Shown: positions 1,599 through 50,208 of the stretch, piece after piece
How the letters are laid out: every line of letters begins with the position of its first letter
Position numbering within the stretch: the first letter of the stretch is position 1
Assembly: GCA_034435055.1 (NCBI GenBank)
Contig: DAOTXS010000097.1
Location: 66,864-130,863 of the forward strand
DNA from: Anaerolineae bacterium
GTDB taxonomy: Bacteria; Chloroflexota; Anaerolineae; UBA4142
DNA: 64,000 nucleotides
Direction of reading: 5' to 3'
Made by a program: the position numbers and the translations under genes
Notes under the pieces: model-generated
What the model saw: the letters and a program-made list of their open reading frames with translations, nothing else
Database searches by the model: none
Told to the model about the DNA's origin: nothing

Positions 1599-4047
1599 TG
1601 CCATTTTCAAAAACCAATTGCAACACTTTTGCAAACTTGTCGATCTGCGCTTTTGCCAATCCGTACTTGACTTTTTCGCTCTGACCGACAACGACGAATT
1701 TTATAGCATACTTGTCGAGCAAAGTCAAAAGGTCTTTGGTATCCAAGGTTTGATAGATGCGTTGAATATCGCCCGCGCGGTCGATGCCGTTGCTGGGATC
1801 GAAATACAATTTGCTGTTGCCGCGCCACTGTGATTCGTGCCCCGCCCAACCCAACACGGTTGGCAAGCCGGTCGCCATTGAAATCCGATTGCCGTACGAA
1901 TATTCATCGCCCGGCGCTTCCAAGATCGTCGCGCCGCGCGGCGCGTTCGCGTTCAACCATTCGATTGCCGCATGATCGTCGGGGTTCGTCGCGCGAATCC
2001 ACGCAATACCGTCAAGGGTTGGCGGATTGCGAAAACCATTCGCGCGGTCGGGAATCGCGAGCGCGGGATAGATCAAACTCGCGCCGAGTAGAATTGTCAA
2101 AGCGACAATCCACGCGCCGCGTGCCAAACCGCGAAGCGATTGCAAAAGATAAACCATCGCGTACGTTCCCGCAATCGCAAACAGAGTCCACGCTTGAAAA
2201 TAAAATTTGAACACCGTGTTCATCCGCGAGCCGAACTGATCGCGCAGATACACAAACTCGACGCCGAACGTGAGCAAGAAACCGGTGAGCGCGAGCAACA
2301 ACGCAAACGTCACACTTGCATCGTCGATGCGAAGCGAAATGAGAACCACAATCGACGCGAGGAAAAGCGCGAGCAGAATAAAGAGCCACGGATCATCGAT
2401 CCACGGACGAAAGTAAGCGCCGAGGACGAGTGTCAAGAGATTGCCCGATGCGTTTGGCATCGCCGCGCGGGCTTGATCCTGCAACGCCGGCGTGAGTGCG
2501 AGAATGGTCAGTGCAAGCCCGGCGACGACGAGTGGAAACAGAATCGCGGCGGCGAGAAATGGCGCGGCGCGGCGGAACCACGCGCGCAAATTCATTTCGG
2601 TTTGCTCGCGCGTGAGTTGAATGATCCACGCGCCGAGTAAGAAAACAAACAAGCCAAACATGATGAGGTATTGATGCAGGCGTGTTTTGACAAAGAGCGT
2701 GGGGAGAATTCCGCCGGCTTGTGATTGAAAACTGACGAAGAACGGCAAGTACATCAAGATGCTGGCGATGCCCAATGTCGCGGCGAAAAAAATTACGTCG
2801 CGCGTGACATTTGTGTTCCATTCACTTTCGGCGCGATACCGTGCGATGGCAAACGCGGCGACCAAAATAAAACCGTACGGCAAAATGTCCCAGGAGTTGA
2901 GGAAGAACAAGCCGCCCAAGACCAGCGGATAAATTCCAAATTCCAAATTCCAAATTCCCAATAATGTTTGTTGAGATTTGAGATTGGGTATTTGAGATTT
3001 GGCGTTGAGCAGATTGAGTGCGACTGCAAGCGCGAGCAGGACAAACGGCAATGCGAGGACGTGCGGATGTAAATCGCCTAAAAGAAAACTGAATTGCGGA
3101 AACTCGTCGATCACTTCAACCGAGTTGCCGCCGATGACATCGTGCACCACCCGTGACGCGCGCCACCACCACCAATTGTCGGTGGGAATCCATGTGCCGT
3201 TGACTGTCGCTTGCGCGAGTCCTTTGATGTCGAGCCATTGCCAGAAATCGTCCGGCAGAATGCCGCGATTGTGCAGAATCTCGAACACGGATTCCAAATT
3301 GCCAACGACGGTCAAAAATATCGGCGCAAAAAAAGATAACGCCATTGCGCTCAAAGTTGGTATTTTAAATTTCGAGTCCCGAATCAAATTGTACGCGACG
3401 CCGTACGCGCCGGTTGTACCTAGTGCAAAGAGCGTAGCGATGGCAAGATTGAACGCCATACTCGATGGAATCCCGCTCACCAGCGTTAGCATCGCAACGA
3501 TGACGTAGCCAAAGTAGTAATAACTGATTGCGTAACCGGACAGCCACGGATCGAGCGGGGGAAAGCGTTCGCTTTGCAAGACACCGTTGAGAAACGCAAA
3601 CTCCATCGGTTTTTCGGTGAAGGTGATTTCCGGCATATACGCCCGCACGAAAACCCACAGCAAAAATGCGAAGGTGAAAACGAGTTCAGTAGCGAGGATG
3701 GTGGATGTGTTGGAGCGCAACCAATCGGCGAAGGACGGAGGACGAAAGACGAAAGACGGAGGTTCATCCTCGGTAATCGGTCTTTGGTCATCGGTCATCG
3801 GTCGTCCTGCGAGCCACCAGCTCAACGCCGCGACGCCGATCACCACAAGCAAAATTGCGCCGCGCGTGTTGGTTAGAAAACCAAGCGATGTCAAAAGCCA
3901 GAACGGGTACGCGACCAACAAAAGACCAAGTGGTTTGGTGAACGCATAACCGCGATCCGGCAAGTTGCGGAAAAATCGAAAGGCAAGCGGCAAAACTGCC
4001 AGCCCGATTAATTCAAGTAACAGCCACCAAAGCAAGACTTCTAGCAT
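1576..4047 (-). CDS. Chlor_Arch_YYY (DUF2298-type) integral membrane protein, 823 aa
   Basis: Long ORF with ATG at 4047. It has many predicted TM helices and the YYYxG motif 'AISYYYFGYVIV'. Its N-terminus (LPDRGYAFTKPLGLLLVAYPFW) is paralogous to residues ~745 onward of the 1563-aa protein. It carries two in-frame heptamer-hairpin insertions. Confidence 0.8.
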   Translation of the reverse strand: MLEVLLWWLLLELIGLAVLPLAFRFFRNLPDRGYAFTKPLGLLLVAYPFWLLTSLGFLTNTRGAILLVVIGVAALSWWLAGRPMTDDQRPITEDEPPSFVFRPPSFADWLRSNTSTILATELVFTFAFLLWVFVRAYMPEITFTEKPMEFAFLNGVLQSERFPPLDPWLSGYAISYYYFGYVIVAMLTLVSGIPSSMAFNLAIATLFALGTTGAYGVAYNLIRDSKFKIPTLSAMALSFFAPIFLTVVGNLESVFEILHNRGILPDDFWQWLDIKGLAQATVNGTWIPTDNWWWWRASRVVHDVIGGNSVEVIDEFPQFSFLLGDLHPHVLALPFVLLALAVALNLLNAKSQIPNLKSQQTLLGIWNLEFGIYPLVLGGLFFLNSWDILPYGFILVAAFAIARYRAESEWNTNVTRDVIFFAATLGIASILMYLPFFVSFQSQAGGILPTLFVKTRLHQYLIMFGLFVFLLGAWIIQLTREQTEMNLRAWFRRAAPFLAAAILFPLVVAGLALTILALTPALQDQARAAMPNASGNLLTLVLGAYFRPWIDDPWLFILLALFLASIVVLISLRIDDASVTFALLLALTGFLLTFGVEFVYLRDQFGSRMNTVFKFYFQAWTLFAIAGTYAMVYLLQSLRGLARGAWIVALTILLGASLIYPALAIPDRANGFRNPPTLDGIAWIRATNPDDHAAIEWLNANAPRGATILEAPGDEYSYGNRISMATGLPTVLGWAGHESQWRGNSKLYFDPSNGIDRAGDIQRIYQTLDTKDLLTLLDKYAIKFVVVGQSEKVKYGLAKAQIDKFAKVLQLVFENGNVRIYAR
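2931..3002. repeat. Heptamer-periodic imperfect hairpin repeat (AAATTCC x4 / TGAGATT x3-4), in-frame in a CDS
   Basis: The sequence is aaattcc aaattcc aaattcc aaattcc caataatgtttgt tgagatt tgagatt gggtatt tgagatt tgg. On the minus strand it translates as SQIPNLKSQQTLLGIWNLEFGIYP within the 823-aa protein. Confidence 0.85.
3730..3807. repeat. Heptamer-periodic imperfect hairpin repeat (GAAGGAC/GAAAGAC arm vs CATCGGT/CTTTGGT arm), in-frame in a CDS
   Basis: The sequence is gaaggac ggaggac gaaagac gaaagac ggagg ttcat cctcggt aatcggt ctttggt catcggt catcggt cgtcc. It translates as MTDDQRPITEDEPPSFVFRPPSF in the 823-aa protein. Confidence 0.85.
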
Positions 4048-11179: not shown

Positions 11180-13174
11180 TTACTGGCTTGGTACATAGAA
11201 TAACCGGAAATCATGTCCCGGCGTGCGCGAACGAACAATTTGTGTTTTGCCGTTCGGAAAAATTTGTTGCAGCACGACCCAGTTCTTTTCATCGCCAAAG
11301 TTGAGCACGTACAATTTATTGGCTGGGTCATCGACGTGCGCGCGCGCATCGTCGGCTTGCGGCAACGTCTGCTCCCAGCCAATCGCGTGCAAATTGATCG
11401 CCACGTTGCGTGTGTCAATCCAGTGCGGGTAGAGCAGAATCCACGTGTGGTTCAAATCAACCACGCCGCTGAAGGCGCGAATTGCCGCGGCGACCTCGGA
11501 TGAGTTCCACGAGCGCGCGCGATAATGCTCGTCAAAGTCGATGAAATAGCGAGTAAAGTTTGCGTGGATACTGGCAAGAATAATCAGCGTGATCAGTGTC
11601 AACGCGCCGACTCGACCCAGCATTGTATCTTTCATCGCGCGCGCAAGCCACGCAAGTGGCAATGCGACGACGATAAACACAAATGGAATTGCGCCGCCGG
11701 CGCGCACGACGCTGGGATTTTCATTTGGAAACGCAATGCTCAACGCGGACGGTAAAAGCATTGTGCCGAGTCCGATCAACACAAACGCGTACGCCATTTC
11801 CCGGTACCGCGCCAATCGATATATCGCGTACACAATGCCGAGCAAAAACAACGCGCCGGCAACATAATCGAGCGCGGGGTCGCCGGGAATCGCATTGGGC
11901 CACGCTTCATCGCCGATCCAATTGAACATCAGCGAGGCGCGAATCAGATTGCTGGCGAGGATGCTGAGGGGATTCTCGTTCACCGGTTGTTCGACGCCGG
12001 TCAGCCGCGTCGCCATGCGATAAAAAACATTGCCGGGATTTTCGGCGAGGTAGCGGGCGAACGGCATCAGAACGATGAGCGCAATTACGAAAAGCAAAAG
12101 GATGTTCGCCAAATAGCGACGCCAATCGGCGTGTTCGTTTTTCTGACTGATGATGAACCACACGCCGGCAAAGAGCGCAACTAGAATCGGCGCGATGCGA
12201 AACGCGTTGTAACCATTTAATCCGATTCCGAGAATCAACCCGGCGATCAAGAAATCGTTGCGGCGGTGATACTTGAACGCGCGAAACAAAAAGTACATCA
12301 ACGGCGCGATAAAGACTGGCGTAAATGGAAAACGCAAACCCATTCGCGCAATCGTGAGGGGCCATTTGCTGAACGCGATAAAAAGCGCGGCAAGCATTGC
12401 CACATCATCGTCGAATAATTCGCGCGCGAAAAGAAATGTGAATGGAATGACCAGTACGCCCATCAACGCCGTGATCAACTTGAGCGCCATATGATCGATG
12501 GGATGCCCGGTCAGTTCGATAAATGCGGCGGTCAAATAAAATTGCAACGGTTCGCGCCCGGTGTTGCGCTCGAAGAAAATCGGACGGAGATCGTTGGTTA
12601 CGATGTCGTTCACGTCGAGCAATTTTTCGGCGTGGTCGCTGTCCATTTCCGCCGGCACCCCATCGAGATTGTGATAATAGAAAAATATCCCGATGAGCAT
12701 AATCGCGCCGAGCATCAACCCGCGCGGCGAAATGTATATACCATCGCTAAACATTTGGCGGATGGTTTGGATTTTTTTGCTCAACCGTATATACCATTCC
12801 ACGCCGCTTTTTTCCGGTTCCCAAAATGCATAGACAAAAACGCCGATACTCAACAGCCACGCGAAAACATTGTCGCCGTTGAATTCATTGCCGCCGGCAA
12901 AGAGAAAAGTCAAAGCGGTGAGGACGATTGCGCTAATCACCAACGCGCGCGACGCAGGTTTCGAATGTGGTTTGCCCGGTTGTGTTTCGTCGATGTGTGT
13001 CCGAATGTCAACACGCGCGAGTATGATTGCAACGAGCCAAATGCCGATTGCTGTCACAAAACCGGCGAGCGCGATCAGGGTCGAATGATGAAACGTGTGT
13101 TGGGATTGTGCGAATGCCGCACACGCAATTGCGGCAAGCGCAAGTACGGGCTGGGTCAGCGCGCGAGGATTCAC
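11180..13174 (-). CDS. Glycosyltransferase family 39-like (ArnT/PMT_2-type) polytopic membrane protein, 664 aa
   Basis: Many TM helices are followed by a soluble C-terminal domain. The general GT-C/ArnT-like layout is present (FERNTGREPLQFYLTAAFIEL...). It has a GTG start at 13174 in a GTGA overlap with the upstream stop. Confidence 0.6.
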   Translation of the reverse strand: MNPRALTQPVLALAAIACAAFAQSQHTFHHSTLIALAGFVTAIGIWLVAIILARVDIRTHIDETQPGKPHSKPASRALVISAIVLTALTFLFAGGNEFNGDNVFAWLLSIGVFVYAFWEPEKSGVEWYIRLSKKIQTIRQMFSDGIYISPRGLMLGAIMLIGIFFYYHNLDGVPAEMDSDHAEKLLDVNDIVTNDLRPIFFERNTGREPLQFYLTAAFIELTGHPIDHMALKLITALMGVLVIPFTFLFARELFDDDVAMLAALFIAFSKWPLTIARMGLRFPFTPVFIAPLMYFLFRAFKYHRRNDFLIAGLILGIGLNGYNAFRIAPILVALFAGVWFIISQKNEHADWRRYLANILLLFVIALIVLMPFARYLAENPGNVFYRMATRLTGVEQPVNENPLSILASNLIRASLMFNWIGDEAWPNAIPGDPALDYVAGALFLLGIVYAIYRLARYREMAYAFVLIGLGTMLLPSALSIAFPNENPSVVRAGGAIPFVFIVVALPLAWLARAMKDTMLGRVGALTLITLIILASIHANFTRYFIDFDEHYRARSWNSSEVAAAIRAFSGVVDLNHTWILLYPHWIDTRNVAINLHAIGWEQTLPQADDARAHVDDPANKLYVLNFGDEKNWVVLQQIFPNGKTQIVRSRTPGHDFRLFYVPSQ

Positions 13175-19360: not shown

Positions 19361-20488
19361 ATGAATGACTTGCCCCAGGAGTGGGAAAAAGTTCTCGATC
19401 GCAAAGGGGTTACGCGGCGAGATTTCCTCAAATTCTGTTCGCTGATGGCGGCGACGCTGGTTCTTCCTCCGCGTTACATTGAGCAGATCGCCAAGGCGTT
19501 GGTGACGGTGCCACGTCCGCCGCTGGTGTGGTTGGAATTCCAAGATTGTGCCGGCAACACCGAAGCACTCCTCCGCGTCAGCCGTCCCTCGATTGGTGAA
19601 CTCGTCCTCGACACGCTCTCGGTAGATTATCACGAAACGATTATGGCGCCCGCCGGCAAAGCCGCCGAAAAATCATTGCAAGACACGATTGCCAAGAACA
19701 AGGGCAAATACATCACCGTCGTAGAAGGTTCGATTCCCACGAAAGATGGCGGCATCTATTGCACAATTGGCGGACACACCGCGCTCGACATTGCGCGCCA
19801 AGTGTGCGGCAATGCCGCGGCGACAATCGCCGTCGGCGCGTGCGCGTTTGATGGCGGTTGGCCCTCTGCCTCGCCTAACCCGACCGGCGCGGTCGGCGTC
19901 AAAGATGCCGTCCCCGGCATCAAGTTGATCAACCTCCCTGGTTGCCCCGTCAACGCGGCAAACATTACCGCGACTATCGTCCACTATTTGACCTTTGGTG
20001 AATTGCCCGCCGCCGATCAACTGGGACGTCCTCTCTTTGCGTACGGTAAACGCATCCACGATAACTGCGAACGTCGTGCCCATTTCGATGCCGGTCAGTT
20101 CGTCGAAGAGTGGGGCGATGAACATCATCGGCAGGGGTGGTGTCTCTACAAGATGGGGTGCAAAGGTCCGGCCACCTATCACAACTGTCCCGTCGTTCGC
20201 TACAACGATGGCGTGAGTTGGCCCATCGGTTCGGGACACGGTTGCGTCGGCTGTAGCGAACCCAGTTTTTGGGACACGATGTCACCGTTCTATCGGCGCC
20301 TGCCCAACGTGGAGGGCTTGGGGGTCGAAGTGCAAGCCGATCAACTGGGCTTGGGGATCGTCGGTGGTGTGGCGGCGGCGTTTGCGGCGCACGGCGTCTT
20401 GAGCGCGATTCGCGCGCGGCAACAACCCATCGCGCGGCATGGTGAGGAAACCGTCAACGCTCAAGCCGATGAAGGAAAGCGAGGTTAA
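19361..20488 (+). CDS. hupS: [NiFe] uptake hydrogenase small subunit (group 1, Tat-exported, C-terminal TM anchor)
   Basis: It has the Tat motif 'TRRDFLKF' and conserved blocks LDTLSVDYHETIMAPAG, VGACAFDGG, LPGCPVN, HDNCERRAHFDAG, GWCLYKMGCKGP and GHGCVGCSEP. A C-terminal hydrophobic helix is present. The RBS aaaggag sits 7 nt upstream of ATG 19361. Confidence 0.95.
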   Translation: MNDLPQEWEKVLDRKGVTRRDFLKFCSLMAATLVLPPRYIEQIAKALVTVPRPPLVWLEFQDCAGNTEALLRVSRPSIGELVLDTLSVDYHETIMAPAGKAAEKSLQDTIAKNKGKYITVVEGSIPTKDGGIYCTIGGHTALDIARQVCGNAAATIAVGACAFDGGWPSASPNPTGAVGVKDAVPGIKLINLPGCPVNAANITATIVHYLTFGELPAADQLGRPLFAYGKRIHDNCERRAHFDAGQFVEEWGDEHHRQGWCLYKMGCKGPATYHNCPVVRYNDGVSWPIGSGHGCVGCSEPSFWDTMSPFYRRLPNVEGLGVEVQADQLGLGIVGGVAAAFAAHGVLSAIRARQQPIARHGEETVNAQADEGKRG

Positions 20489-20490
20489 CG

Positions 20491-22197
20491 ATGGCAAAGA
20501 TTGCAATTGACCCCATCACGCGCATCGAAGGCCATTTGCGCATCGAAGTTCAGGTGGACGGCGGCAAGGTTACCGATGCGTGGAGTTCCAGCACGATGTT
20601 TCGTGGGATGGAAATCATCCTCAAGGGACGCGATCCGCGCGATGCCTGGGTCTTTACGCAACGCATCTGCGGCGTCTGCACAACCGTTCACGCGGCAACC
20701 TCGGTGCGCGCGGTGGAAAACGCGCTCGGCATTACGATTCCGCTCAACGCGCAGATCATTCGTAATATCATCGAAGGCAGCCAGTTTGTCCAGGATCACG
20801 TCATCCACTTTTATCACCTCCACGCGCTCGATTGGGTGGACATTGTGAGCGCGCTCAAAGCCGATCCTGCCGCCACGGCAAAACTCGCGCAATCCATTTC
20901 GGATTGGCCCAACTCGTCCGAGGCGTACTTCAAGGGTGTGCAAAACAAAGTCAAAGCGTTTGTCGAATCGGGGCAACTGGGTCCCTTTGCGAACGCGTAC
21001 TGGGGACACCCCGCCTACAAGTTGCCGCCCGAAGCAAACCTGATGGCGGTCGCGCACTATCTTGAAGCGCTCGATTGGCAACGCGAGATTATTCGTATCC
21101 ACGCCCTGCTCGGCGCCAAGAATCCGCATCTGCAGACGTATCTGGTCGGCGGGATGTCCATTCCGATTGATCCCAACAGTCAGAATGCCATCAACGCGGA
21201 CAAGATCGCGCTGATGAAAAAGTGGCTGGCGCAAGCGCGTCAGTTCGTCGAAAAAGTGTACATACCCGATCTGCTCGCCGTCGCGCCGTTCTACAAGGAC
21301 TGGGCGGGTTATGGCGCCGGGCTGGGCAACTTTCTGGCGTACGGTGAGTTTCCGCAAGCCGCTGACAACTCGCAACTCTTTTTGCCGCGCGGCGTCATCC
21401 TCAACAAAGACCTGAGCAAGGTCCTGCCGATGGATCACCAAAAAGTTGCCGAGTATGTCACGCATTCGTGGTACGAGTACGGCGCCGGCGATGCCAAGTC
21501 ACTGCATCCTTGGGAGGGAGAAACCAATCCCAAGTACACGGGACCCCAACCGCCGTTCGAGGCGATGGTCGGCGACGGTGCCAAGTATTCCTGGCTCAAA
21601 GCGCCGCGCTACGACGGCAACGCGATGGAAGTGGGACCGCTGGCGCGGATGCTCGTGGCGTATGCGTCGGGGGTCAAGCCGGTGGTGGACACGGTCAATC
21701 TCGTTTTGAAAACGCTCGGCGTCGGACCCGAAGCGCTCTTCTCGACCCTTGGTCGCACCGCCGCACGCGGCATCGAAACGCTTGTCCTCGCGCAGCAACT
21801 GGAGGGCTGGGTGGATCAACTCGCGGCAAACATCAAGCGCGGCGATCTCAAAGTGCACAACGGCGAGAAATGGGATCCATCGAAATGGCCCGCGGAAGCC
21901 AAGGGCTGGGGATTCTTGGAAGCGCCGCGCGGCGCGCTGGGGCACTGGGTACGCATCAAAAACGGCGCCATCGAAAACTATCAATGCGTCGTTCCGTCCA
22001 CGTGGAACGGCTCCCCGCGCGATGCGAGTGGCAAGCGCGGTGCGTGGGAACAAGCGCTCATCGGTACGCCGGTCGCTAATCCCGAACAACCCATCGAAAT
22101 CTTGCGCACCGTCCACTCGTTCGATCCGTGTATGGCGTGTGCCGTCCATGTGGTTGATCCGAACGGGCGTGAGATGATGAGCGTCAAGGTCAAGTGA
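20491..22197 (+). CDS. hupL: [NiFe] uptake hydrogenase large subunit (group 1)
   Basis: The N-terminal motif is 'RIEGHLRIEV...QRICGVCTTVH'. The C-terminal motif is 'DPCMACAVH' followed by a 15-aa extension that the maturation protease removes. Confidence 0.97.
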   Translation: MAKIAIDPITRIEGHLRIEVQVDGGKVTDAWSSSTMFRGMEIILKGRDPRDAWVFTQRICGVCTTVHAATSVRAVENALGITIPLNAQIIRNIIEGSQFVQDHVIHFYHLHALDWVDIVSALKADPAATAKLAQSISDWPNSSEAYFKGVQNKVKAFVESGQLGPFANAYWGHPAYKLPPEANLMAVAHYLEALDWQREIIRIHALLGAKNPHLQTYLVGGMSIPIDPNSQNAINADKIALMKKWLAQARQFVEKVYIPDLLAVAPFYKDWAGYGAGLGNFLAYGEFPQAADNSQLFLPRGVILNKDLSKVLPMDHQKVAEYVTHSWYEYGAGDAKSLHPWEGETNPKYTGPQPPFEAMVGDGAKYSWLKAPRYDGNAMEVGPLARMLVAYASGVKPVVDTVNLVLKTLGVGPEALFSTLGRTAARGIETLVLAQQLEGWVDQLAANIKRGDLKVHNGEKWDPSKWPAEAKGWGFLEAPRGALGHWVRIKNGAIENYQCVVPSTWNGSPRDASGKRGAWEQALIGTPVANPEQPIEILRTVHSFDPCMACAVHVVDPNGREMMSVKVK

Positions 22198-22210: not shown

Positions 22211-22897
22211 ATGCTCAGGAGATTATATGTTTGGGAAATTCCAGTCCGCCTGACGCACTGGGTCAACGTTTTGTCTATCGTCGTCTTGTCCGTTACCGGC
22301 TATTACATCGGCAACCCGTGGATTCTGGTGAGTAATCGTGAATGGTACGGGCCCTTTTTTATGGGGAATGTGCGTTTTATCCATTTTACCTTTGCGTTCA
22401 TTTTCGTTGCCAGTCTGGCACTCCGCACCTACTGGGCGTTCGTCGGCAACGAGTGGGCAAGTTGGCGCAACCTGTTTCCATTTCTCACCGCGGATGGACG
22501 CAAAGCGTTACTCGACGCGCTCAAGTACTATGCTTTCCTCCGGCGTGAGCCGCCCGAAGTAATTGGACACAATGCGCTCGCGGGACTGACGTACGCGGCG
22601 ATTGTAACTCTGTACTTTGTCCAAGTGTTCACTGGGTTTGCGCTCTTGGGCGAGACCAATCCGCAAGGGATTTGGTACCAACTGACCGGTTGGGTCTTTG
22701 GAATTTTCCCCAACCAAACTTTGCGGCTGGTGCATCACCTAATCATGTGGTTACTCATCGCGTTTGCATTGCATCATGTGTACAGCGCGTTCCTCGTGGA
22801 CTCGGAAGAAGGAAATGGACTGTTATCGTCCATCTTCAGCGGGTTCAAGTTCATTCACGCGGAACTGCTCAAAAAAGTGAATGGGAACCAAACTTAA
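22211..22897 (+). CDS. hupC: Ni/Fe-hydrogenase b-type cytochrome subunit
   Basis: 228 aa with 4 TM helices. The N-terminus 'YVWEIPVRLTHWVNVLSIVVLSVTGYYIG' is typical of HyaC/HupC. Confidence 0.9.
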   Translation: MLRRLYVWEIPVRLTHWVNVLSIVVLSVTGYYIGNPWILVSNREWYGPFFMGNVRFIHFTFAFIFVASLALRTYWAFVGNEWASWRNLFPFLTADGRKALLDALKYYAFLRREPPEVIGHNALAGLTYAAIVTLYFVQVFTGFALLGETNPQGIWYQLTGWVFGIFPNQTLRLVHHLIMWLLIAFALHHVYSAFLVDSEEGNGLLSSIFSGFKFIHAELLKKVNGNQT

Positions 22898-22930: not shown

Positions 22931-22941
22931 TCATCTTGGCA

Positions 22942-23418
22942 ATGGAAATACTTGTGCTGGGTTTGGGGAACATTCTTTTGCACGATGAAGGCATCGGCGT
23001 GCGCGTGATCGAACAGTTGCGCACGCGCTATACTTTTCCGGACGATGTGATTGTGATGGACGGCGGTACGTTGGGTCTCGATCTCTTGGCGTACATCGAA
23101 GAAGCGTCGCACCTTGTCATTGTGGACGCGGTCAATGCCGGCAAGGAACCCGGGACGCTGGTGCGTCTGGTGAACGACGAAATCCCGGCATTCCTAGGTC
23201 CCAAAGTCTCGCCGCATCAAGTTGGCTTGCAAGATTTGCTCGCGCTTGCCAGACTGCGCGGACATTTTCCGGCGGAGGTGGTTCTGTGGGGCGTGCAAAT
23301 CGAACAGCTTGAACCGGGTCTCACACTCTCGTCGAAGGTCGCTGCCCAAATTGATCCCCTCTGCCTTCGCGTGGTCGAAGAATTGGCGCGCTGGAATATC
23401 GTTGTGAAGCAAAAATGA
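22942..23418 (+). CDS. hupD: Hydrogenase maturation endopeptidase (HyaD/HybD/HupD family)
   Basis: It begins 'EILVLGLGNILLHDEGIGVRV' and contains 'VIVDAV' and 'SPHQVGL', which are signatures of this family. Confidence 0.92.
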   Translation: MEILVLGLGNILLHDEGIGVRVIEQLRTRYTFPDDVIVMDGGTLGLDLLAYIEEASHLVIVDAVNAGKEPGTLVRLVNDEIPAFLGPKVSPHQVGLQDLLALARLRGHFPAEVVLWGVQIEQLEPGLTLSSKVAAQIDPLCLRVVEELARWNIVVKQK

Positions 23419-23843
23419 AACGCTTGGGTTTTTGGCTCATCACCGCTCTCATCATCCTTGGCGCATATCTGACCTTGCCGCGTGATTCTGAATCACTTCC
23501 TCAAGAATACGCTACCATCAACGTGCCGAACGATATCCTCGATTCGCCCGACGCCATCACGCGCGGACGCGAGATTTTTCTTTCCAACTGCGTGCCGTGT
23601 CACGGTCTTGCCGGGAATGGTCAAGGCACCATCAAGCCAACCTTCGGTCCGTCGCCAGCCGATTTTACGGATCGCGCGCGCCGGCAAAGGCGGTCGCCGC
23701 AATATCTCTTTTGGCGCGTGAGCGAAGGAGGTCAAGTCGAACCATTTCGTTCGCAAGGTTCGATTATGCCCGCGTGGAAATTTCGCTTGAGTGAACCGCA
23801 ACGCTGGCAAGTCGTCGCCTATCTTCGCACACTTGCACCGTAA
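23415..23843 (+). CDS. Membrane-anchored class I c-type cytochrome (monohaem)
   Basis: It has an N-terminal TM helix, the single haem motif 'CVPCHG', and a distal Met context 'GSIMPAW'. It forms an ATGA overlap with the hupD stop. Confidence 0.8.
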   Translation: MKRLGFWLITALIILGAYLTLPRDSESLPQEYATINVPNDILDSPDAITRGREIFLSNCVPCHGLAGNGQGTIKPTFGPSPADFTDRARRQRRSPQYLFWRVSEGGQVEPFRSQGSIMPAWKFRLSEPQRWQVVAYLRTLAP

Positions 23844-23888
23844 CACCACCCACGCTATAATGGGATGAATCCTCTTTGCGGAAAAAAT

Positions 23889-24230
23889 ATGCATGAATTA
23901 GGCATCGCTCAGGATATTTTCAAAATTGCAAGCGAGTATGCAGCCAAGCATAACGCGCAGCGTATTACTGCCTTTAACATCGAAATCAGTGCGGCAATGG
24001 ACGAAAGCGAAGAGGCGTTGCGTTTTCATATCGAGAATCTGGCACACGGCACGCTTGCCGAAGGCGCGACCATTGAAATTGCGCGTGTGCCCGCGCACCT
24101 CGTCTGTCTCGATTGCGGCAACGAGTTTGAACTGCGTGATGAGAATGTTGTCTGTCCGCATTGTGCGAGTGTACGCGTGCGTGCGCATTCGCACGACGAT
24201 TTCAAACTGACCAGCATCGAGATCGAGTAA
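23889..24230 (+). CDS. hypA: Hydrogenase nickel insertion protein HypA
   Basis: It has the N-terminal 'MHE' Ni-binding motif and the Zn site 'CLDCGNEF...CPHCAS'. Confidence 0.93.
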   Translation: MHELGIAQDIFKIASEYAAKHNAQRITAFNIEISAAMDESEEALRFHIENLAHGTLAEGATIEIARVPAHLVCLDCGNEFELRDENVVCPHCASVRVRAHSHDDFKLTSIEIE

Positions 24231-26599
24231 TGATCAAACGATTGCGTGCGGAAATTCGCGGCGCGGTGCAGGGCGTCGGTTTTCGTCCGTTTGTTTATCG
24301 GCTGGCGACCGAACTTGCGCTCAAGGGCTGGATCATCAACGATACACGCGGTGTCTTTATCGAAGTTGAAGGAGACGAGACAGCGCTGGCGCGTTTCATC
24401 GAACGCTTGCCAGAGGAAAAACCGCCCCGTTCGATCATTCATTCATTCGATTTGACCTGGCTTGCACCGGTTGGCTTTGCGCAATTTGAAATCCGTCATA
24501 GCGATGAATCGGGCGCGAAAACGGTGCTCGTCTTGCCCGACATTGCCACTTGCCCCGACTGTCTCGCTGAAGTTTTCGATCCAAGGAATCGGCGTTATCG
24601 TTATCCCTTTACCAATTGCACCAACTGCGGTCCGCGTTTTACAATCATCGAAGCCTTACCCTACGACCGTCCCAACACGACGATGCGCCGGTTCACAATG
24701 TGTGCAGATTGCCAACACGAGTACGAAAATCCGCTCGACCGGCGTTTTCACGCGCAACCGAATGCCTGTCCGGTGTGTGGTCCCACGTTAAAAGTTACAA
24801 GTTCCAAGTTCAAAATTGAGAACCTTGAACCTGAAACCTTGAACCTTGAACCCATCGCACACACCGCGCGTCTCCTCGCGCAAGGTTACATCGTCGCCGT
24901 CAAAGGTCTGGGCGGATTTTTGTTGATGGCGGACGCGCGCAACGCTGAGGCGCTGGCACGTTTGCGTGAGCGCAAGCCTCGCCGTGATAAACCGTTCGCG
25001 TTGATGGCGCGCGATCTGGTGCAAGCGCGCACGCTCGTTGAGCTAGACCCCCAAGCCGAAGCCTTGCTCACCTCGCCTGAATCGCCGATTGTGTTGTTGC
25101 GTCGTAAGCACAATGCGCCGGTTGCGGAGAATATTGCACCTGGCAATCCGTACCTGGGTGTGATGTTACCGTACACCCCCTTGCATCATTTGCTCTTACG
25201 CGCGATTGATTTTCCGGTCGTTGCCACCAGCGGCAACTTGAGCGACGAACCGATTTGCATTGACGAAACCGAAGCGGTGCAACGCCTAGGACACATCGCC
25301 GATTTCTTTCTTGTGCACAATCGTCCGATTGCGCGGCACGTGGACGACAGCGTGATGACCATCATGCTAGGCGAGCCGCGATTCTTGCGGCGCGCACGTG
25401 GATACGCGCCGATGCCGGTGTTGCTCAAACACGAGATTCCAACGATTCTGGGCGTTGGGGCGCATCTCAAGAATACAATCGCGCTATCGGTTCGCAACCA
25501 AGTCTTTATCAGTCAGCACATTGGCGATTTGGAAACGCCCGAAGCGATGAAGGCGTTCGAGCGCGTGATCGCCGATTTTCTGAAATTATACGAAGCGACG
25601 CCCATCGCCGTCGCGCACGATTTGCATCCGGATTATCTTTCGACTAAGTGGGCGCACGCGTGGATGACGAAAGACGAAAGACGAACGACGAATGATTCGT
25701 CCTTGGTCGTTCGTCCTTCGTCCTTGGTCGTTGTCCAGCACCACCACGCTCACCTTGCTGCGTGCCTCGCCGAGAATCAAGCCGACCGTGCATTGGGGGT
25801 GATGTGGGACGGTACGGGGTACGGAACGGACGGCACAATTTGGGGCGGCGAATTTTTGCTCGGCGATGCAAAAGATTTTGTGCGCGTCGCGCATCTGCGT
25901 CCGTTTCGCTTACCCGGTGGCGATGCCGCCATCAAAGAGCCGCGCCGTTCAGCGTTTGCATTGTTGTACGCAATGTTTGGTGAAGCGATCATCGAGCGCG
26001 ATGATCTGGCACCGATACGCACGTTGACATCGGCGGAACGCAAGACACTGGTGCAAATGTTGAGCAAAGGAATCAACTCACCGATCACCACGAGTGTCGG
26101 ACGATTATTCGATGGCGTTGCTGCGCTGATCGGTTTACATCCACACGTTTCGTTTGAAGGTCAAGCGGCGATGGCGCTCGAGTATGCGGTAGATGCGACG
26201 GTGAGGGACGCATACCCAATCGAGACGAAAGACGAAGGACGAAAGACGAGGGATTTGTCCTCCGTCGTTCGTCCTTCGTCCTCCGTCCTCGACTGGCACC
26301 CCCTCATCGAATCCGTGTTGAGCGACTTGTCACGCGGCATCGAACGGAGTATTATTGCGGCACGGTTTCATAACGCGCTTGTGCAAGCGATTGTTGCGGT
26401 GGCAAAACAAATCGGCGAGGAAAAGGTTGCGCTGAGCGGCGGCTGTTTTCAGAATCGTTTCTTGACCGAACGTGCGGCAACCGAACTCGCGCAAGCCGGC
26501 TTTCGCGTCTTGTTGCACCAACACGTTCCGCCGAATGATGGGTGTATCAGTTTGGGACAGGTGGTCGTCGCGGCGGCGCGTCTGACTACTAACCACTAA
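24230..26599 (+). CDS. hypF: Carbamoyltransferase HypF
   Basis: It has the acylphosphatase-like 'IRGAVQGVGFRPFVYRLA', two Zn-finger pairs (CPDCLAEV...CTNCGPRF; CADCQHEY...CPVCGP), and YrdC-like and Kae1-like regions. It forms a TAATG overlap with hypA. It contains three in-frame heptamer-hairpin insertions. Confidence 0.95.
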   Translation: MIKRLRAEIRGAVQGVGFRPFVYRLATELALKGWIINDTRGVFIEVEGDETALARFIERLPEEKPPRSIIHSFDLTWLAPVGFAQFEIRHSDESGAKTVLVLPDIATCPDCLAEVFDPRNRRYRYPFTNCTNCGPRFTIIEALPYDRPNTTMRRFTMCADCQHEYENPLDRRFHAQPNACPVCGPTLKVTSSKFKIENLEPETLNLEPIAHTARLLAQGYIVAVKGLGGFLLMADARNAEALARLRERKPRRDKPFALMARDLVQARTLVELDPQAEALLTSPESPIVLLRRKHNAPVAENIAPGNPYLGVMLPYTPLHHLLLRAIDFPVVATSGNLSDEPICIDETEAVQRLGHIADFFLVHNRPIARHVDDSVMTIMLGEPRFLRRARGYAPMPVLLKHEIPTILGVGAHLKNTIALSVRNQVFISQHIGDLETPEAMKAFERVIADFLKLYEATPIAVAHDLHPDYLSTKWAHAWMTKDERRTTNDSSLVVRPSSLVVVQHHHAHLAACLAENQADRALGVMWDGTGYGTDGTIWGGEFLLGDAKDFVRVAHLRPFRLPGGDAAIKEPRRSAFALLYAMFGEAIIERDDLAPIRTLTSAERKTLVQMLSKGINSPITTSVGRLFDGVAALIGLHPHVSFEGQAAMALEYAVDATVRDAYPIETKDEGRKTRDLSSVVRPSSSVLDWHPLIESVLSDLSRGIERSIIAARFHNALVQAIVAVAKQIGEEKVALSGGCFQNRFLTERAATELAQAGFRVLLHQHVPPNDGCISLGQVVVAAARLTTNH
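24792..24853. repeat. Heptamer-periodic imperfect hairpin repeat (AAGTTCC arm / AACCTTG arm), in-frame in hypF
   Basis: The sequence is aagttac aagttcc aagttca aaattgag aaccttg aacctga aaccttg aaccttg aaccc. It encodes KVTSSKFKIENLEPETLNLEP. Confidence 0.85.
25663..25736. repeat. Heptamer-periodic imperfect hairpin repeat (GAAAGAC arm / TCGTCCT-TGGTCGT arm), in-frame in hypF
   Basis: The sequence is gaaagac gaaagac gaacgac gaatgat tcgtcct tggtcgt tcgtcct tcgtcct tggtcgt tgtcc. It encodes MTKDERRTTNDSSLVVRPSSLVVV. Confidence 0.9.
26222..26290. repeat. Heptamer-periodic imperfect hairpin repeat (GAAAGAC/GAAGGAC arm / GTCCTCC-GTCCTTC arm), in-frame in hypF
   Basis: The sequence is gaaagac gaaggac gaaagac gagggat tt gtcctcc gtcgttc gtccttc gtcctcc gtcctc. 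It encodes ETKDEGRKTRDLSSVVRPSSSVL. Confidence 0.9.
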
Positions 26600-26628: not shown

Positions 26629-26886
26629 ATGTGTCTCGGTGTTCCCGGCAAAGTGATAGCGATTCAACCCAACTCAGTTGGGATGACGATGGGCAAAGTG
26701 GATTTTGGCGGCATCGTCAAAGAAATTTGCCTTGCCTATGTGCCTGAGGTCAAAGTCGGCGAATACGTTATCGCGCATGCCGGCTTTGCGATTAGCACGC
26801 TGGACGAAAAAGAAGCGCGCGAGGTATTTGAAACGCTCAAGCAGATTGACGATTTGTCGTCGTTGGATATTCCGCAACCAGACTAA
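26629..26886 (+). CDS. hypC: Hydrogenase assembly chaperone HypC/HupF
   Basis: It has the N-terminal 'MCLGVPGKV' with the essential Cys2. The protein is 85 aa. Confidence 0.95.
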   Translation: MCLGVPGKVIAIQPNSVGMTMGKVDFGGIVKEICLAYVPEVKVGEYVIAHAGFAISTLDEKEAREVFETLKQIDDLSSLDIPQPD

Positions 26887-26946
26887 CGACGAATGACGAA
26901 TGACGAATGCATTCCTTCGTCCTTCGTCTTTGGTCCTTGGTCGAGG
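26884..26946. repeat. Heptamer-periodic imperfect hairpin repeat (GAATGAC arm / GTCCTTC arm), hypC-hypD intergenic
   Basis: The sequence is taacgac gaatgac gaatgac gaatgca ttccttc gtccttc gtctttg gtccttg gtcgagg. It lies just upstream of the hypD ATG at 26953. Confidence 0.85.
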
Positions 26947-26952
26947 TGTGAG

Positions 26953-28037
<1,085 letters not shown>

Positions 28038-28041
<4 letters not shown>

Positions 28042-29096
28042 GCGCAGTCGAATTTACCGGCGTGCAATGTCCGATTCCCATCAACGAATATCCGCACATC
28101 ACGCTGGCGCACGGCGGCGGCGGACGCTTGATGCAAATGCTCATCGAAAAAATGTTTGTACCGTCGTTTGCCAACCCCGCGCTGGAATCCTTGCACGATG
28201 GCGCGATCATCGAAACGCATGGGGCGCGCCTGGCATTCACCACCGACTCGTATGTGATTCATCCGATTTTTTTCCCGGGCGGTGACATTGGTTCGCTGGC
28301 GGTGCACGGCACGGTGAATGATTTGGCGATGTGTGGCGCGCAACCGCTCGCGCTTTCCTCGGCGCTGATTTTGGAAGAGGGCTTGCCGATGCACGATTTG
28401 TGGCGCATTGTGCAATCGATGCAGAACGCGGCGCAAAAGGTTGGCGTCCCGATTGTGACCGGCGATACCAAAGTGGTGGATCGCGGCAAGGGCGATGGCG
28501 TGTTCATCAATACCGCCGGCATCGGCATGATTCCGGCGCACATTCGCGTTGCGCCACAGCGGGCGCAACCCGGCGACCTCGTTTTGCTTAGCGGTGCGAT
28601 TGCAGTACACGGCATCGCGATTATGTCGGTGCGTGAGGGATTGGACTTTGAAACGCAACTGCAATCCGATTCCGCGCCATTGCACGACATCGTCGCGCGG
28701 GTGCTCGAGGTGGCGGGCGAACACGTTCACGTTTTGCGTGATCCCACCCGCGGCGGAGTGGCAAGCACGTTGAACGAGATCGCCGCATCGGCGAAGGTTG
28801 GGATCCGCTTGCAAGAAACGCAGATTCCAATTGACGATGCGGTGCGCGGCGCGTGCGAAATCCTGGGATTCGATCCGCTCTACGTCGCGAACGAAGGCAA
28901 ATTTCTCGCCATCGTCGCGCGCGAGGTGGCGGAGCAAGTTCTGGCGACGATGCAGGCGCATCCGTTAGGCAAACAATCCGCGATAATCGGTGAGGTGGTT
29001 GCGGATCATCCTGGCAAAGTGTATTTGAAAAGTCGGATTGGTGGAATGCGTGTGGTGGATATGCTCAGTGGCGAGCAACTACCGAGGATTTGCTGA
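28038..29096 (+). CDS. hypE: Hydrogenase maturation carbamoyl dehydratase HypE
   Basis: It has '[14 protein letters not shown]' and an AIR-synthase-like fold pattern, and the C-terminus ends in 'PRIC'. It forms an ATGA overlap with hypD. Confidence 0.95.
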
Positions 29097-48675: not shown

Positions 48676-50208
48676 ATGCTTTACTTGATCACTCGTTACG
48701 TTGACAAATTTCGCCATTGGCAAGCGTCTTTCAATTGGGGTTTGCGTTTCAAGCTCGTCCTCTTAATTGCCATTGTATCCTTCTTCAGTGTTCTGGCTTC
48801 GTCCGCGTTAATTCTCACACTCCAAAAACAACAACTTGAAGATAGTGCCATGCAATCGACTACACGATTGAGCGATGCGATCAATGCGAGTTTGGAGCAG
48901 GCAATGCTTCGCGACGATCGTCCGATGATTAGGCAGATTGTTCAGACATTGGTGGACAAACAGAACGTTGAGCACATTCGAATTTTGGACAGACAGGGAA
49001 TTGTGCATATTAGTTCTCAGCCAACCGAAGTTGGCGTGCGGTTCGATTATTCTCAGGCGTTATGCCAATTTTGCCATACCGACGGCACGCGCCCTAGCAA
49101 TCAAACAACGATGACTGAAATGAGCGATGGACGTACCGCTTTGCTCAATGTTACGATGATCTACAATCAACCGCAATGCCAGAGTTGCCATGACGCTCAA
49201 CGTCGCATTCTTGGGTTGACAATGATCGAGATGTCATTGGGCGATTTGAATAATCAGGTGGCGTCGGGTTTTTGGCGGATTGTACTGTCATCGTTGGTAT
49301 CGCTGGCTTTGTTGATCGTCCTAATGATTATTGCCTTGCGAAAATTGATTATCAAACCGATCGACGAATTGACGCGCGGGATGACGGAGATTCGTGCGGG
49401 TAATCTTGATTGCGCGCTTCAAGTTTCAACGCGCGATGAATTTGGCAAGTTAGCTGACACCTTCGACGATATGCGCCGGCAATTAAAGTCGTCGCGCAGT
49501 GAAAACGTTGAACTGTACAAGCGGGTGCGCTCGCTGGCAATCTTGGAAGAGCGCGACCGTTTGGCGCGCGAGATGCACGACAATCTGGCGCAGATGCTTG
49601 GCTACATCAATTTCAAACTAGCGGTTACTGACGAGCTACTGGCCAAACCAGAACTCGCGCAAGCGCGTGCCAACCTGATCGAAATTAAGCGAGTTGCCAA
49701 AGAAGCATTCACCGATGTGCGCGAGGCGATTTTCAATCTTCGTCAAACAGCGCCGATTGGAGACGGGTTGATTTCGATGTTGCGAGGGTATCTGGACGAA
49801 TACCAAGCGCATTATGGCATTGAGACGGATTTTTGGATCGAGGATCTACGATTGGTGGAGTTTCCCGAGGAAGTTCAGTTGCAAATAAATCGGATCGTTC
49901 AAGAGGCACTGACGAATGTGCGCAAGCACGCACGCGCCAGCCGGGTGTCGGTTCGGATCGAGCACGTGGATCATCATGTTCAAATCGGAATTGGTGATAA
50001 CGGCACTGGATTTGACGCGATCAAATTGAGCCAAGACGGTGTGCAACATTACGGCTTGCAAATTATGCGCGAACGTGCGGCGAGTGTGGGTGGTGATTTG
50101 GAAATAAATTCTCAGCCCGGCGCCGGCACGCGCATCATTCTGCGAGTTCCACTTTATCCGGTATTTGAGGACCCTCATGAAAATATTACGCGTACTATTA
50201 GCGGATGA
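48676..50208 (+). CDS. NarX/LiaS-class sensor histidine kinase (HAMP + HisKA_3 + HATPase_c) with an extracytoplasmic domain carrying two CxxCH motifs
   Basis: The extracytoplasmic domain lies between TM1 (LVLLIAIVSFFSVLASSALIL) and TM2 (FWRIVLSSLVSLALLIVLMIIAL). It contains 'CQFCH' (49063-49077) and 'CQSCH' (49177-49191). The HAMP region is 'IKPIDELTRGMTEIRAGNL', the H-box is 'ERDRLAREMHDNLAQ', and the G-boxes are 'DNGTGF' and 'GLQIMRERA'. Confidence 0.85.
   Translation: MLYLITRYVDKFRHWQASFNWGLRFKLVLLIAIVSFFSVLASSALILTLQKQQLEDSAMQSTTRLSDAINASLEQAMLRDDRPMIRQIVQTLVDKQNVEHIRILDRQGIVHISSQPTEVGVRFDYSQALCQFCHTDGTRPSNQTTMTEMSDGRTALLNVTMIYNQPQCQSCHDAQRRILGLTMIEMSLGDLNNQVASGFWRIVLSSLVSLALLIVLMIIALRKLIIKPIDELTRGMTEIRAGNLDCALQVSTRDEFGKLADTFDDMRRQLKSSRSENVELYKRVRSLAILEERDRLAREMHDNLAQMLGYINFKLAVTDELLAKPELAQARANLIEIKRVAKEAFTDVREAIFNLRQTAPIGDGLISMLRGYLDEYQAHYGIETDFWIEDLRLVEFPEEVQLQINRIVQEALTNVRKHARASRVSVRIEHVDHHVQIGIGDNGTGFDAIKLSQDGVQHYGLQIMRERAASVGGDLEINSQPGAGTRIILRVPLYPVFEDPHENITRTISG

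Follow-up and report, generated by a model that had tools for sequence, protein, structure and literature searches.

The window analysed in this work is a stretch of 64,000 nucleotides from an uncultured member of the Chloroflexota, an Anaerolineae bacterium (GenBank assembly GCA_034435055.1, contig DAOTXS010000097.1, positions 66,864 to 130,863 of the forward strand). It carries an operon for a [NiFe] hydrogenase whose small subunit presents three cysteines and one asparagine at the site of the proximal iron-sulfur (Fe-S) cluster, where the textbook motif has four cysteines. An earlier inspection of this DNA, made from its letters only and called here the sequence-only reading, took the asparagine as a possible mark of an unusual variant of an otherwise standard group 1 enzyme. 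The features of the small subunit gene, numbered by position in the window, are the following.

19361..20488, + strand: [NiFe] hydrogenase small subunit, 375 aa (TIGR00391 hydA, PDB matches)
19547..19558, + strand: C63-A-G-N66, first proximal-cluster Cys and Asn at the site of the second Cys (alignment to PDB chains)
19835..19858, + strand: G-A-C161-A-F-D164-G-G, with the third proximal ligand C161 (PDB alignments)
19937..19954, + strand: P-G-C195-P-V197-N, with the fourth proximal ligand C195; V197 replaces the canonical Pro (alignment)
20057..20161, + strand: distal [4Fe-4S] ligands H233, C236, C261 and C267 (matching D. vulgaris His188/Cys191/Cys216/Cys222)
20186..20254, + strand: medial [3Fe-4S]-type ligands C276 (followed by Pro277), C295 and C298 (alignment, relatives)

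The ATG start of this open reading frame has AAAGGAG upstream, and its product scores 440 bits with the NCBIfam model TIGR00391 (hydA, cutoff 179.5). The protein carries a twin-arginine translocation (Tat) signal, matched by the NCBIfam TAT signal model, with RRDFLKF at aa 19-25, and a C-terminal hydrophobic anchor. A phmmer search of all PDB chains gave 43 small-subunit matches with E-values from 1e-99 to 1e-79. In the match to the D. vulgaris MF enzyme (1h2a_S, E 1e-99), the segment 'vvylhnaectgcsesvlr' aligns without gaps to 'lvwlefqdcagnteallr' of the window protein, and the chains of Hyd-1, Hyd-2 and the membrane-bound hydrogenase (MBH) are likewise ungapped across the motif; Asn66 therefore takes the place of the second CxxC cysteine, which is Cys20 in the D. 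vulgaris enzyme. The codons at 19547-19558 are tgt gcc ggc aac, which read C-A-G-N, with aac (19556-19558) encoding Asn66. The codons and the ungapped alignment to the 43 solved small subunits agree, and they bear out the replacement of the second proximal CxxC Cys by Asn that the sequence-only reading had described. Cleavage of the signal after AKA would make C63 residue 17 and N66 residue 20 of the mature protein, matching the D. vulgaris numbers.

The gene identity and the ligand inventory can be taken directly from these data: the proximal set consists of three Cys and Asn, and the distal set of one His and three Cys and the medial set of three Cys are intact. The distal ligands, which had been called canonical, are all present and show no variation in relatives. 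The other proximal ligands had been called canonical as well; this holds for C161 and C195, which are present, but LPGCPVN departs from GCPPN, and the missing Pro co-varies with Asn. Of the medial motif, which had been drawn as GCKGP...NCP...CVGC, the C276/C295/C298 set is present, but the 'GC' of GCKGP is a distal ligand. The mature small subunit has two non-ligand cysteines, C134 and C149, and no others; both are equally conserved in relatives with and without Cys66, and in the PDB alignment C134 also occurs in Hyd-1, Hyd-2 and MBH. Another Cys at the ligand position, the case named in advance as one that would speak against the substitution, was not found by alignment and Cys conservation, and by the same evidence no substitute Cys for the fourth proximal thiolate is evident in the mature protein.

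In a few related small subunits (P0035, P0060, P0117, L021, L040, L042 and L064) the motif reads C-C-G-N or C-C-G/A-D. The second Cys of these proteins is at position 18, not at the group 1d position 19, and may offer an alternative thiolate; the window has Ala64 at this site.

Position 66 among relatives and the group assignment

The relatives considered here have 60-95% identity to the window protein, and the 203 aligned sequences comprise 201 of them plus two PDB outgroups. At position 66 these sequences have Asn in 125 cases, Cys in 53 and Asp in 25. The 120 closest database clusters (66-95% identity) include 68 with CxxN, 46 with CxxC and 6 with CxxD, and among 80 loci, one genome per species (60-87% identity), the counts are 56 Asn, 19 Asp (16 counted plus 3 missed by the pattern) and 5 Cys. 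When all 1.84 billion representatives at 50% identity were scanned with HMMER, the clusters nearest to the window protein had Asn, Asp or Glu at this position, and those farther away had Cys. Roseiflexus spp. have CAGN, Geobacter, Geobacteraceae and Oryzomonas have CAGD or CAGN, and the enzymes of Acidobacteriota have Asn or Asp. No exact-sequence database record of the window protein was found; the closest protein, 95% identical, comes from the metagenome-assembled genome GCA_037444225.1 (P0001/L081), which has the same operon including a cytochrome c gene, and further close relatives carry the labels Caldilineales, Chloroflexota or Anaerolineae.

The state of residue 66 was followed by parsimony counts on a neighbour-joining tree, in which D. 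vulgaris and E. coli Hyd-2 set the root. At least 18 changes were counted among the 203 sequences, mainly between Asn and Asp (at least 11 swaps), and even a homologue at 92% identity (P0002) has Asp. With Asn, Asp and Cys interchanging so often, the idea that C-x-x-N defines a clade does not hold.

The relatives at 60-89% small-subunit identity belong to Roseiflexus, Geobacter/Geobacteraceae, Acidobacteriota, Nitrospirota, Ktedonobacterales and Chloroflexaceae, and they have in common the gene order small subunit, large subunit, cytochrome b, protease. The nearest named relatives (Roseiflexus, Geobacter/Geobacteraceae, Acidobacteriota) show 63-74% identity, and the solved small subunits of groups 1b and 1c show 49-50%; over the whole set of named relatives the small-subunit identity spans 63-89%. 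It has been reported for group 1f that the enzymes from Roseiflexus, Geobacter and Frankia have Asn or Asp in place of this Cys (Mohammadi et al. 2017, PMC5364354), and the enzymes of Roseiflexus, Frankia synton-3 and Acidobacterium ailaaui have been placed in group 1f. The window protein has this hallmark in Asn66, and it shows the features of a group 1 uptake enzyme, namely the Tat signal, the ligand sets for three clusters, the L1 and L2 motifs together with a maturation protease, and a cytochrome b. On the basis of its similarity to the named taxa and of the published hallmark, the window enzyme is assigned to the group 1f type. As judged from the aligned sequences, Asn at proximal position 20 is the normal, majority state of this clade and was already published, so that the view of the enzyme as an unusual variant has to be given up. 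The window adds to the group 1f type a further member from an uncultured lineage of the Chloroflexota and reveals no new kind of enzyme.

Hydrogenases of group 1f are common among bacteria of soils, hot springs and sediments, and have been linked to the oxidation of H2 in air or at trace levels and to defence against oxidative stress.

Several other assignments were considered and rejected. The group 1d O2-tolerant MBH, with a [4Fe-3S] cluster held by six Cys, has extra cysteines at positions 19 and 120; the PDB alignment places Gly65 and Gly166 of the window protein there, and the protein scores below the cutoffs of both the Hyd-1 and the Hyd-2 equivalog models of NCBIfam. Group 1h (Hhy; the actinobacterial-type hydrogenase, AH) is marked by a cytosolic small subunit lacking a Tat signal, by CxxD, a medial cluster of four Cys and the L1 motif TSRICGICGDNH, and it is ruled out by the Tat signal of the window protein, Asn in place of Asp, the medial NCP motif of 3Fe type, the L1 motif RICGVCTTVH and only 27% identity to the AH small subunit HofK. 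Group 2a (Huc/HupS) has the CxxN motif alone in common with the window, which has a Tat signal and the distal His233 and shows 28% identity. A [NiFeSe] hydrogenase was discarded because the four nickel-ligand codons of the window large subunit all encode Cys, and a pseudogene because the Tat signal, the remaining ligands and the whole operon, hyp genes included, show no damage.

The proximal pocket and its proposed working

Conservation and covariation were likewise read directly from the alignments. The column most strongly associated with the state of residue 66 is position 197 (V197, 19949-19951), two residues after the fourth ligand. In the 203 aligned sequences Pro197 accompanies Cys66 in 51 of 53 cases and Asn or Asp66 in 0 of 150 (Fisher p 4e-46, not phylogeny-corrected); in the 50%-identity representatives it is found in 46/67 proteins with Cys66 versus 0/28 with Asn, Asp or Glu66 (Fisher p about 1e-11, also uncorrected for phylogeny). 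The combination of Cys66 and Pro197 occurs in at least two separate groups inside the clade, and the rule is obeyed by HucS (GCPA), the small subunit of Huc, and by the C. necator AH (GCPV). Positions 157, 163, 164 and 202 also co-vary with residue 66; Asp164 (19850-19852, in 'CAFDGG'), which the window has, is present in 65 of the 125 Asn-state sequences, in 2 with Asp and in none with Cys. The covariation at these five positions argues for a co-adapted pocket and against neutral drift, and the proximal pocket of the window enzyme looks co-adapted with Asn66. Mention of the covariation between Pro197 and residue 66 was not found in the hydrogenase literature searched, and we regard it as a small new point. 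It amounts to a sequence rule common to groups 1f, 1h and 2a, in which a non-Cys residue at position 20 goes with the loss of the second Pro in GCPP, and this rule could guide mutagenesis and annotation.

The properties of such a site can be approached through three described enzymes. HucS of M. smegmatis (7uur_D, 7utd_B) reads 'GACSGNTMSF ... GDCACFGG ... GCPAHPDW'; this sequence is that of the PDB target found with a query resembling cyanobacterial HupS, and the target sequence alone was used. Its C-S-G-N aligns ungapped onto the C-A-G-N of the window in BLASTP. The Huc paper describes three [3Fe-4S] clusters on the basis of 1.52 Å maps, 'the fourth coordinating residue' and electron paramagnetic resonance (EPR); the names of the fourth residues are not given in its supplementary text. 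HofK of the C. necator AH, read from pHG1, has 'GCDGDS ... GCPVQPDN', with Asp at the position of residue 66; its proximal cluster is a [4Fe-4S] held by three Cys and one Asp, and replacement of this Asp abolishes O2 insensitivity. For Nostoc HupS, a review gives a proximal [4Fe-4S] with one Asn and three Cys ligands. Since the HucS, AH and HupS cases share a single position, the parallels drawn by the sequence-only reading with group 1h (Asp) and Huc (3Fe), both of which involve exactly residue 66, were well chosen, and the raised potential or O2 resilience that it considered for such sites is discussed in the literature on AH and Huc.

The gene for HofK (L083 9963-11018; pHG1 NC_005241 59962-61017) is mislabelled as 'hydrogenase expression protein HypE'. 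Two further candidates for comparison were set aside: the second hydrogenase in L020, tried as a group 2a/1h comparator, has 438 aa, is unrelated to both and by its length and motifs reads as group 3, and the representative P0178, tried as a comparator for HucS and HofK, is closest to NiFeSe small subunits.

Our reading of the whole, to which we give a probability of roughly 0.8, is that the window encodes a Tat-exported, cytochrome b-anchored H2-uptake hydrogenase of group 1f type, with Asn as the majority state and with a co-adapted, three-thiolate proximal site that would have a raised potential. The small subunit would be the electron-transfer subunit of a periplasmic, membrane-anchored enzyme; H2 would be split in the large subunit, and electrons would pass from the proximal cluster to the medial [3Fe-4S], the distal His-ligated [4Fe-4S], cytochrome b and the quinone pool. 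The type of the proximal cluster (3Fe or Asn-ligated 4Fe), the potential and the behaviour toward O2 are inferred by analogy. The fourth iron of the proximal cluster would be absent or weakly held, and we lean slightly toward a [3Fe-4S] as in HucS, which has the same signature, CxxN together with a residue other than Pro after GCP. With either cluster type the potential of the proximal relay would lie above that of a cubane held by Cys alone, which would bias the enzyme to H2 oxidation and might help against O2; the examples of AH and Huc make such O2 resilience plausible.

Several points weigh against this reading. We know of no purified enzyme or solved structure from group 1f, and the cluster type and potential are therefore extrapolated from enzymes with 27-28% identity. 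Cyanobacterial HupS, with the same CxxN, has been described with an Asn-ligated [4Fe-4S]. Given the frequent exchange of Asn and Asp, the Asn may serve as a ligand in the way that Asp does in AH, and because the Cys state recurs in the clade, the physiological effect of the substitution may be modest.

The strongest alternative, a serious contender to which we give somewhat less than even odds, is a complete proximal [4Fe-4S] whose fourth iron is bound by the side-chain oxygen of Asn66, as with the Asp of AH and as proposed for HupS, with no 3Fe cluster. The repeated Asn/Asp swaps and the Asp of the 92%-identical homologue favour it, together with the 4Fe cluster that Asp binds at exactly this position in AH and the ligand set that the review gives for Nostoc HupS. 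Against it stands HucS, in which the identical CxxN goes with a [3Fe-4S] seen at 1.52 Å and without the EPR signal of a reduced 4Fe cluster. A carboxamide is, moreover, a poor iron ligand. The substitution could also be effectively neutral, Cys, Asn and Asp being functionally similar and their variation drift. The 18 or more state changes among close relatives, some between near-identical proteins, would fit such a view, but we consider it unlikely: the strict coupling to Pro197, with the co-varying positions 157, 163 and 202, argues for co-adaptation, and replacing the equivalent Asp of AH abolishes O2 insensitivity.

Two further explanations would leave an ordinary enzyme. A normal four-Cys cubane, in which another Cys (through a shifted register or an insertion, from C134 or C149, or from the large subunit) gives the fourth thiolate, can appeal to the conservation of C134 and C149 in the clade; it is very improbable, given that the alignment has no gaps around the motif, that both cysteines are as conserved in Cys-state relatives and C134 is a non-ligand in Hyd-1, Hyd-2 and MBH, and that the CCGN/CCGD variant is confined to a few relatives and is replaced by Ala64 in the window. 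The idea that Asn arose by an error of sequencing or assembly, or by a private mutation of a decaying gene whose true or ancestral form had CxxC, has nothing in its favour beyond the departure from the textbook motif, and we give it next to no weight. An AAC or AAT codon for Asn66 is present in 58 independent genomes, a change from Asn to Cys takes two nucleotide changes, and neither the remaining ligands nor the Tat signal nor the operon, including its hyp genes, is disrupted; chance and sequencing error are excluded by Asn being the commonest residue at this position in the relatives.

An extension of the reading that we prefer, the co-adapted three-thiolate site, is that group 1f may carry two [3Fe-4S] clusters, proximal and medial, which would form a relay of unusually high potential; in the lineage of the window this relay might feed the periplasmic cytochrome c of the operon besides cytochrome b. 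We hold this extension to be doubtful, and we know of no Tat-exported group 1 hydrogenase in which two [3Fe-4S] clusters have been demonstrated; if true, H2 oxidation could be coupled directly to a high-potential (aerobic) chain. Taken together, the interpretation of the sequence-only reading is partly supported: its chemistry was partly right, and its view of an exception in a standard enzyme was wrong.

The operon and the related loci

The genes downstream of the small subunit, and the motifs of the large subunit, are as follows.

20491..22197, + strand: [NiFe] hydrogenase large subunit, 568 aa (NCBIfam E 1e-197)
20662-20691, + strand: L1 motif RICGVCTTVH of the large subunit, Cys codons throughout
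22123-22149, + strand: L2 motif DPCMACAVH of the large subunit, Cys codons throughout
22211..22897, + strand: b-type cytochrome membrane subunit, HyaC-like (TIGR02125, E 7e-48)
22936..23418, + strand: HyaD/HybD-type maturation endopeptidase (TIGR00140, E 5e-49)
23415..23843, + strand: small monohaem c-type cytochrome with an N-terminal hydrophobic segment (CVPCH at 23589; weak NCBIfam cytochrome c matches)
23865-24230, + strand: hypA
about 24230-26599, + strand: hypF
26629-26886, + strand: hypC
about 26956-28041, + strand: hypD
about 28038-29096, + strand: hypE

The hyp genes were named from the translations of the open reading frames and the Pfam labels of the syntenic L081. The large subunit has a 15-residue tail after DPCMACAVH, and the gene for the HyaD-type protease lies downstream. 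The cytochrome b scores 163 bits with TIGR02125 (cutoff 121.5), and its gene is present in nearly all related loci.

The cytochrome c gene (23415-23843) overlaps the stop codon of the protease gene. Homologues in the operon were found in 7 of 81 related loci (L008, L038, L049, L062, L067, L073 and L081), which belong to one member of the Anaerolineales, several Acidobacteriota and the 95% relative L081. All seven are in the Asn state, which is not significant since about 70% of the loci are in that state anyway. The fit between the substitution and the cytochrome c that the sequence-only reading had proposed is thus weak, and from its distribution the cytochrome c is best regarded as an accessory feature of a few lineages that says nothing about the proximal cluster.

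Palindromic elements of about 70-80 nt, made of GACGAA[A/G] heptads and their complement, were observed at 25666-25745, 26224-26303 and about 26883-26939, with a half copy at 3729-3752. The first two lie in frame within hypF and translate as ..DERRTTNDSSLVVRPSSLVV.. and ..DEGRKTRDLSSVVRPSSSV..; the third is at the hypC/hypD junction, where hypD seems longer at its 5' end on account of it. All of them resemble insertions like repetitive extragenic palindromes or miniature inverted-repeat transposable elements that are tolerated in coding sequence. Elsewhere in the window, at about 49063-49190 (+ strand), two CxxCH haem-binding motifs in one frame, 38 codons apart, suggest a gene for a multihaem cytochrome c.

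The window's own large subunit has Cys codons and no UGA at L1. In 21 of 80 related genomes the L1 sequence RICGVC is encoded as RI-TGA-GV-TGA (L003, L004, L009-L012, L014, L016, L018, L019, L021, L023, L025-L027, L029, L040, L061, L063, L064 and L071; an example is L009, about 11290-11360), and three more (L001, L007 and L078) have the second TGA alone. The C-terminal DPCxxC of these UGA-type large subunits stays Cys. The double codon reads as a putative UxxU motif with two selenocysteines (U). A hairpin of 6 bp with a CGUGA loop, similar to a selenocysteine insertion sequence, is found at +29 to +45, 16-18 nt past the second UGA. Its pairs 29-45, 32-42, 33-41 and 34-40 are paired in 92-100% of the UGA-type genes, and pairs 30-44 and 31-43 in 71%, owing to a shifted register in 7 of the 24; over nine tested positions the paired fraction is 69% in UGA-type versus 43% in Cys-type genes. 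Pair 30-44 shows one compensatory change, from A-U to U-A. The Arg codon AGA occurs in 16 of the 24 UGA-type genes and is missing from the commonest codons listed for the Cys-type at that position. The hairpin was noticed by eye and was not recovered by RNAalifold from the region after the UGA codons, and the support for it consists of explicit pair counts; no tRNA gene turned up when the loci with UGA were scanned. In a 2026 paper, UXXU is described for group 4 hydrogenases only, UXXC and UXXU are called previously unrecognised, and just two group 1 sequences with CXXU are cited, so that UxxU in group 1f-type enzymes may be unreported so far.

Comparison with named hydrogenases

The enzymes of groups 1b, 1c and 1d (D. 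vulgaris, E. coli Hyd-2, Hyd-1 and C. necator MBH) resemble the window enzyme in fold, Tat export, the medial 3Fe cluster and the distal cluster with one His and three Cys, and groups 1d and 1c also in the membrane cytochrome b or anchor. Their identity to the window protein is 49-50%. They have CxxC (in group 1d CxCC plus Cys120) and GCPP, whereas the window protein reads CAGN and GCPV and has Gly at both position 19 and position 120.

HofK (group 1h; PDB 5AA5) is like the window protein in having a non-Cys residue at this site (C-D-G-D) and GCPVQ without the second Pro. In contrast, its Asp ligates a [4Fe-4S], its medial cluster has four Cys, it has neither a Tat signal nor a cytochrome b, and the identity is 27%. 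HucS (group 2a; PDB 7UTD/7UUR/8DQV) shares C-x-G-N at the aligned site and a residue other than Pro after GCP (GCPAH, compared with GCPVN in the window); unlike the window protein, to which it is 28% identical, it is cytosolic, lacks a Tat signal, has its distal His replaced and holds three clusters that are all [3Fe-4S], and as part of a complex of 833 kDa it passes electrons straight to menaquinone. HupS of Nostoc punctiforme, also of group 2a, has Asn and three Cys at the proximal site as in the window, but is cytoplasmic, has Gln for the distal His, and its EPR was interpreted as a proximal [4Fe-4S].

The group 1f enzymes (Roseiflexus, Geobacter sulfurreducens Hya, Frankia synton-3 and Acidobacterium ailaaui) have, as in the window, a Tat-exported small subunit and an operon in the order small subunit, large subunit, cytochrome b, protease. 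The window proteins are 63-67% (small subunit) and 63-71% (large subunit) identical to the 1f homologues of Roseiflexus, Geobacteraceae and Acidobacteriota. A scan for the HypB motif in all six frames of the window found no hypB, and the gene has been reported missing from the Frankia 1f synton as well. The window differs from other group 1f systems in its uncultured Chloroflexota source and in the extra gene for a monohaem cytochrome c, which is found in few relatives.

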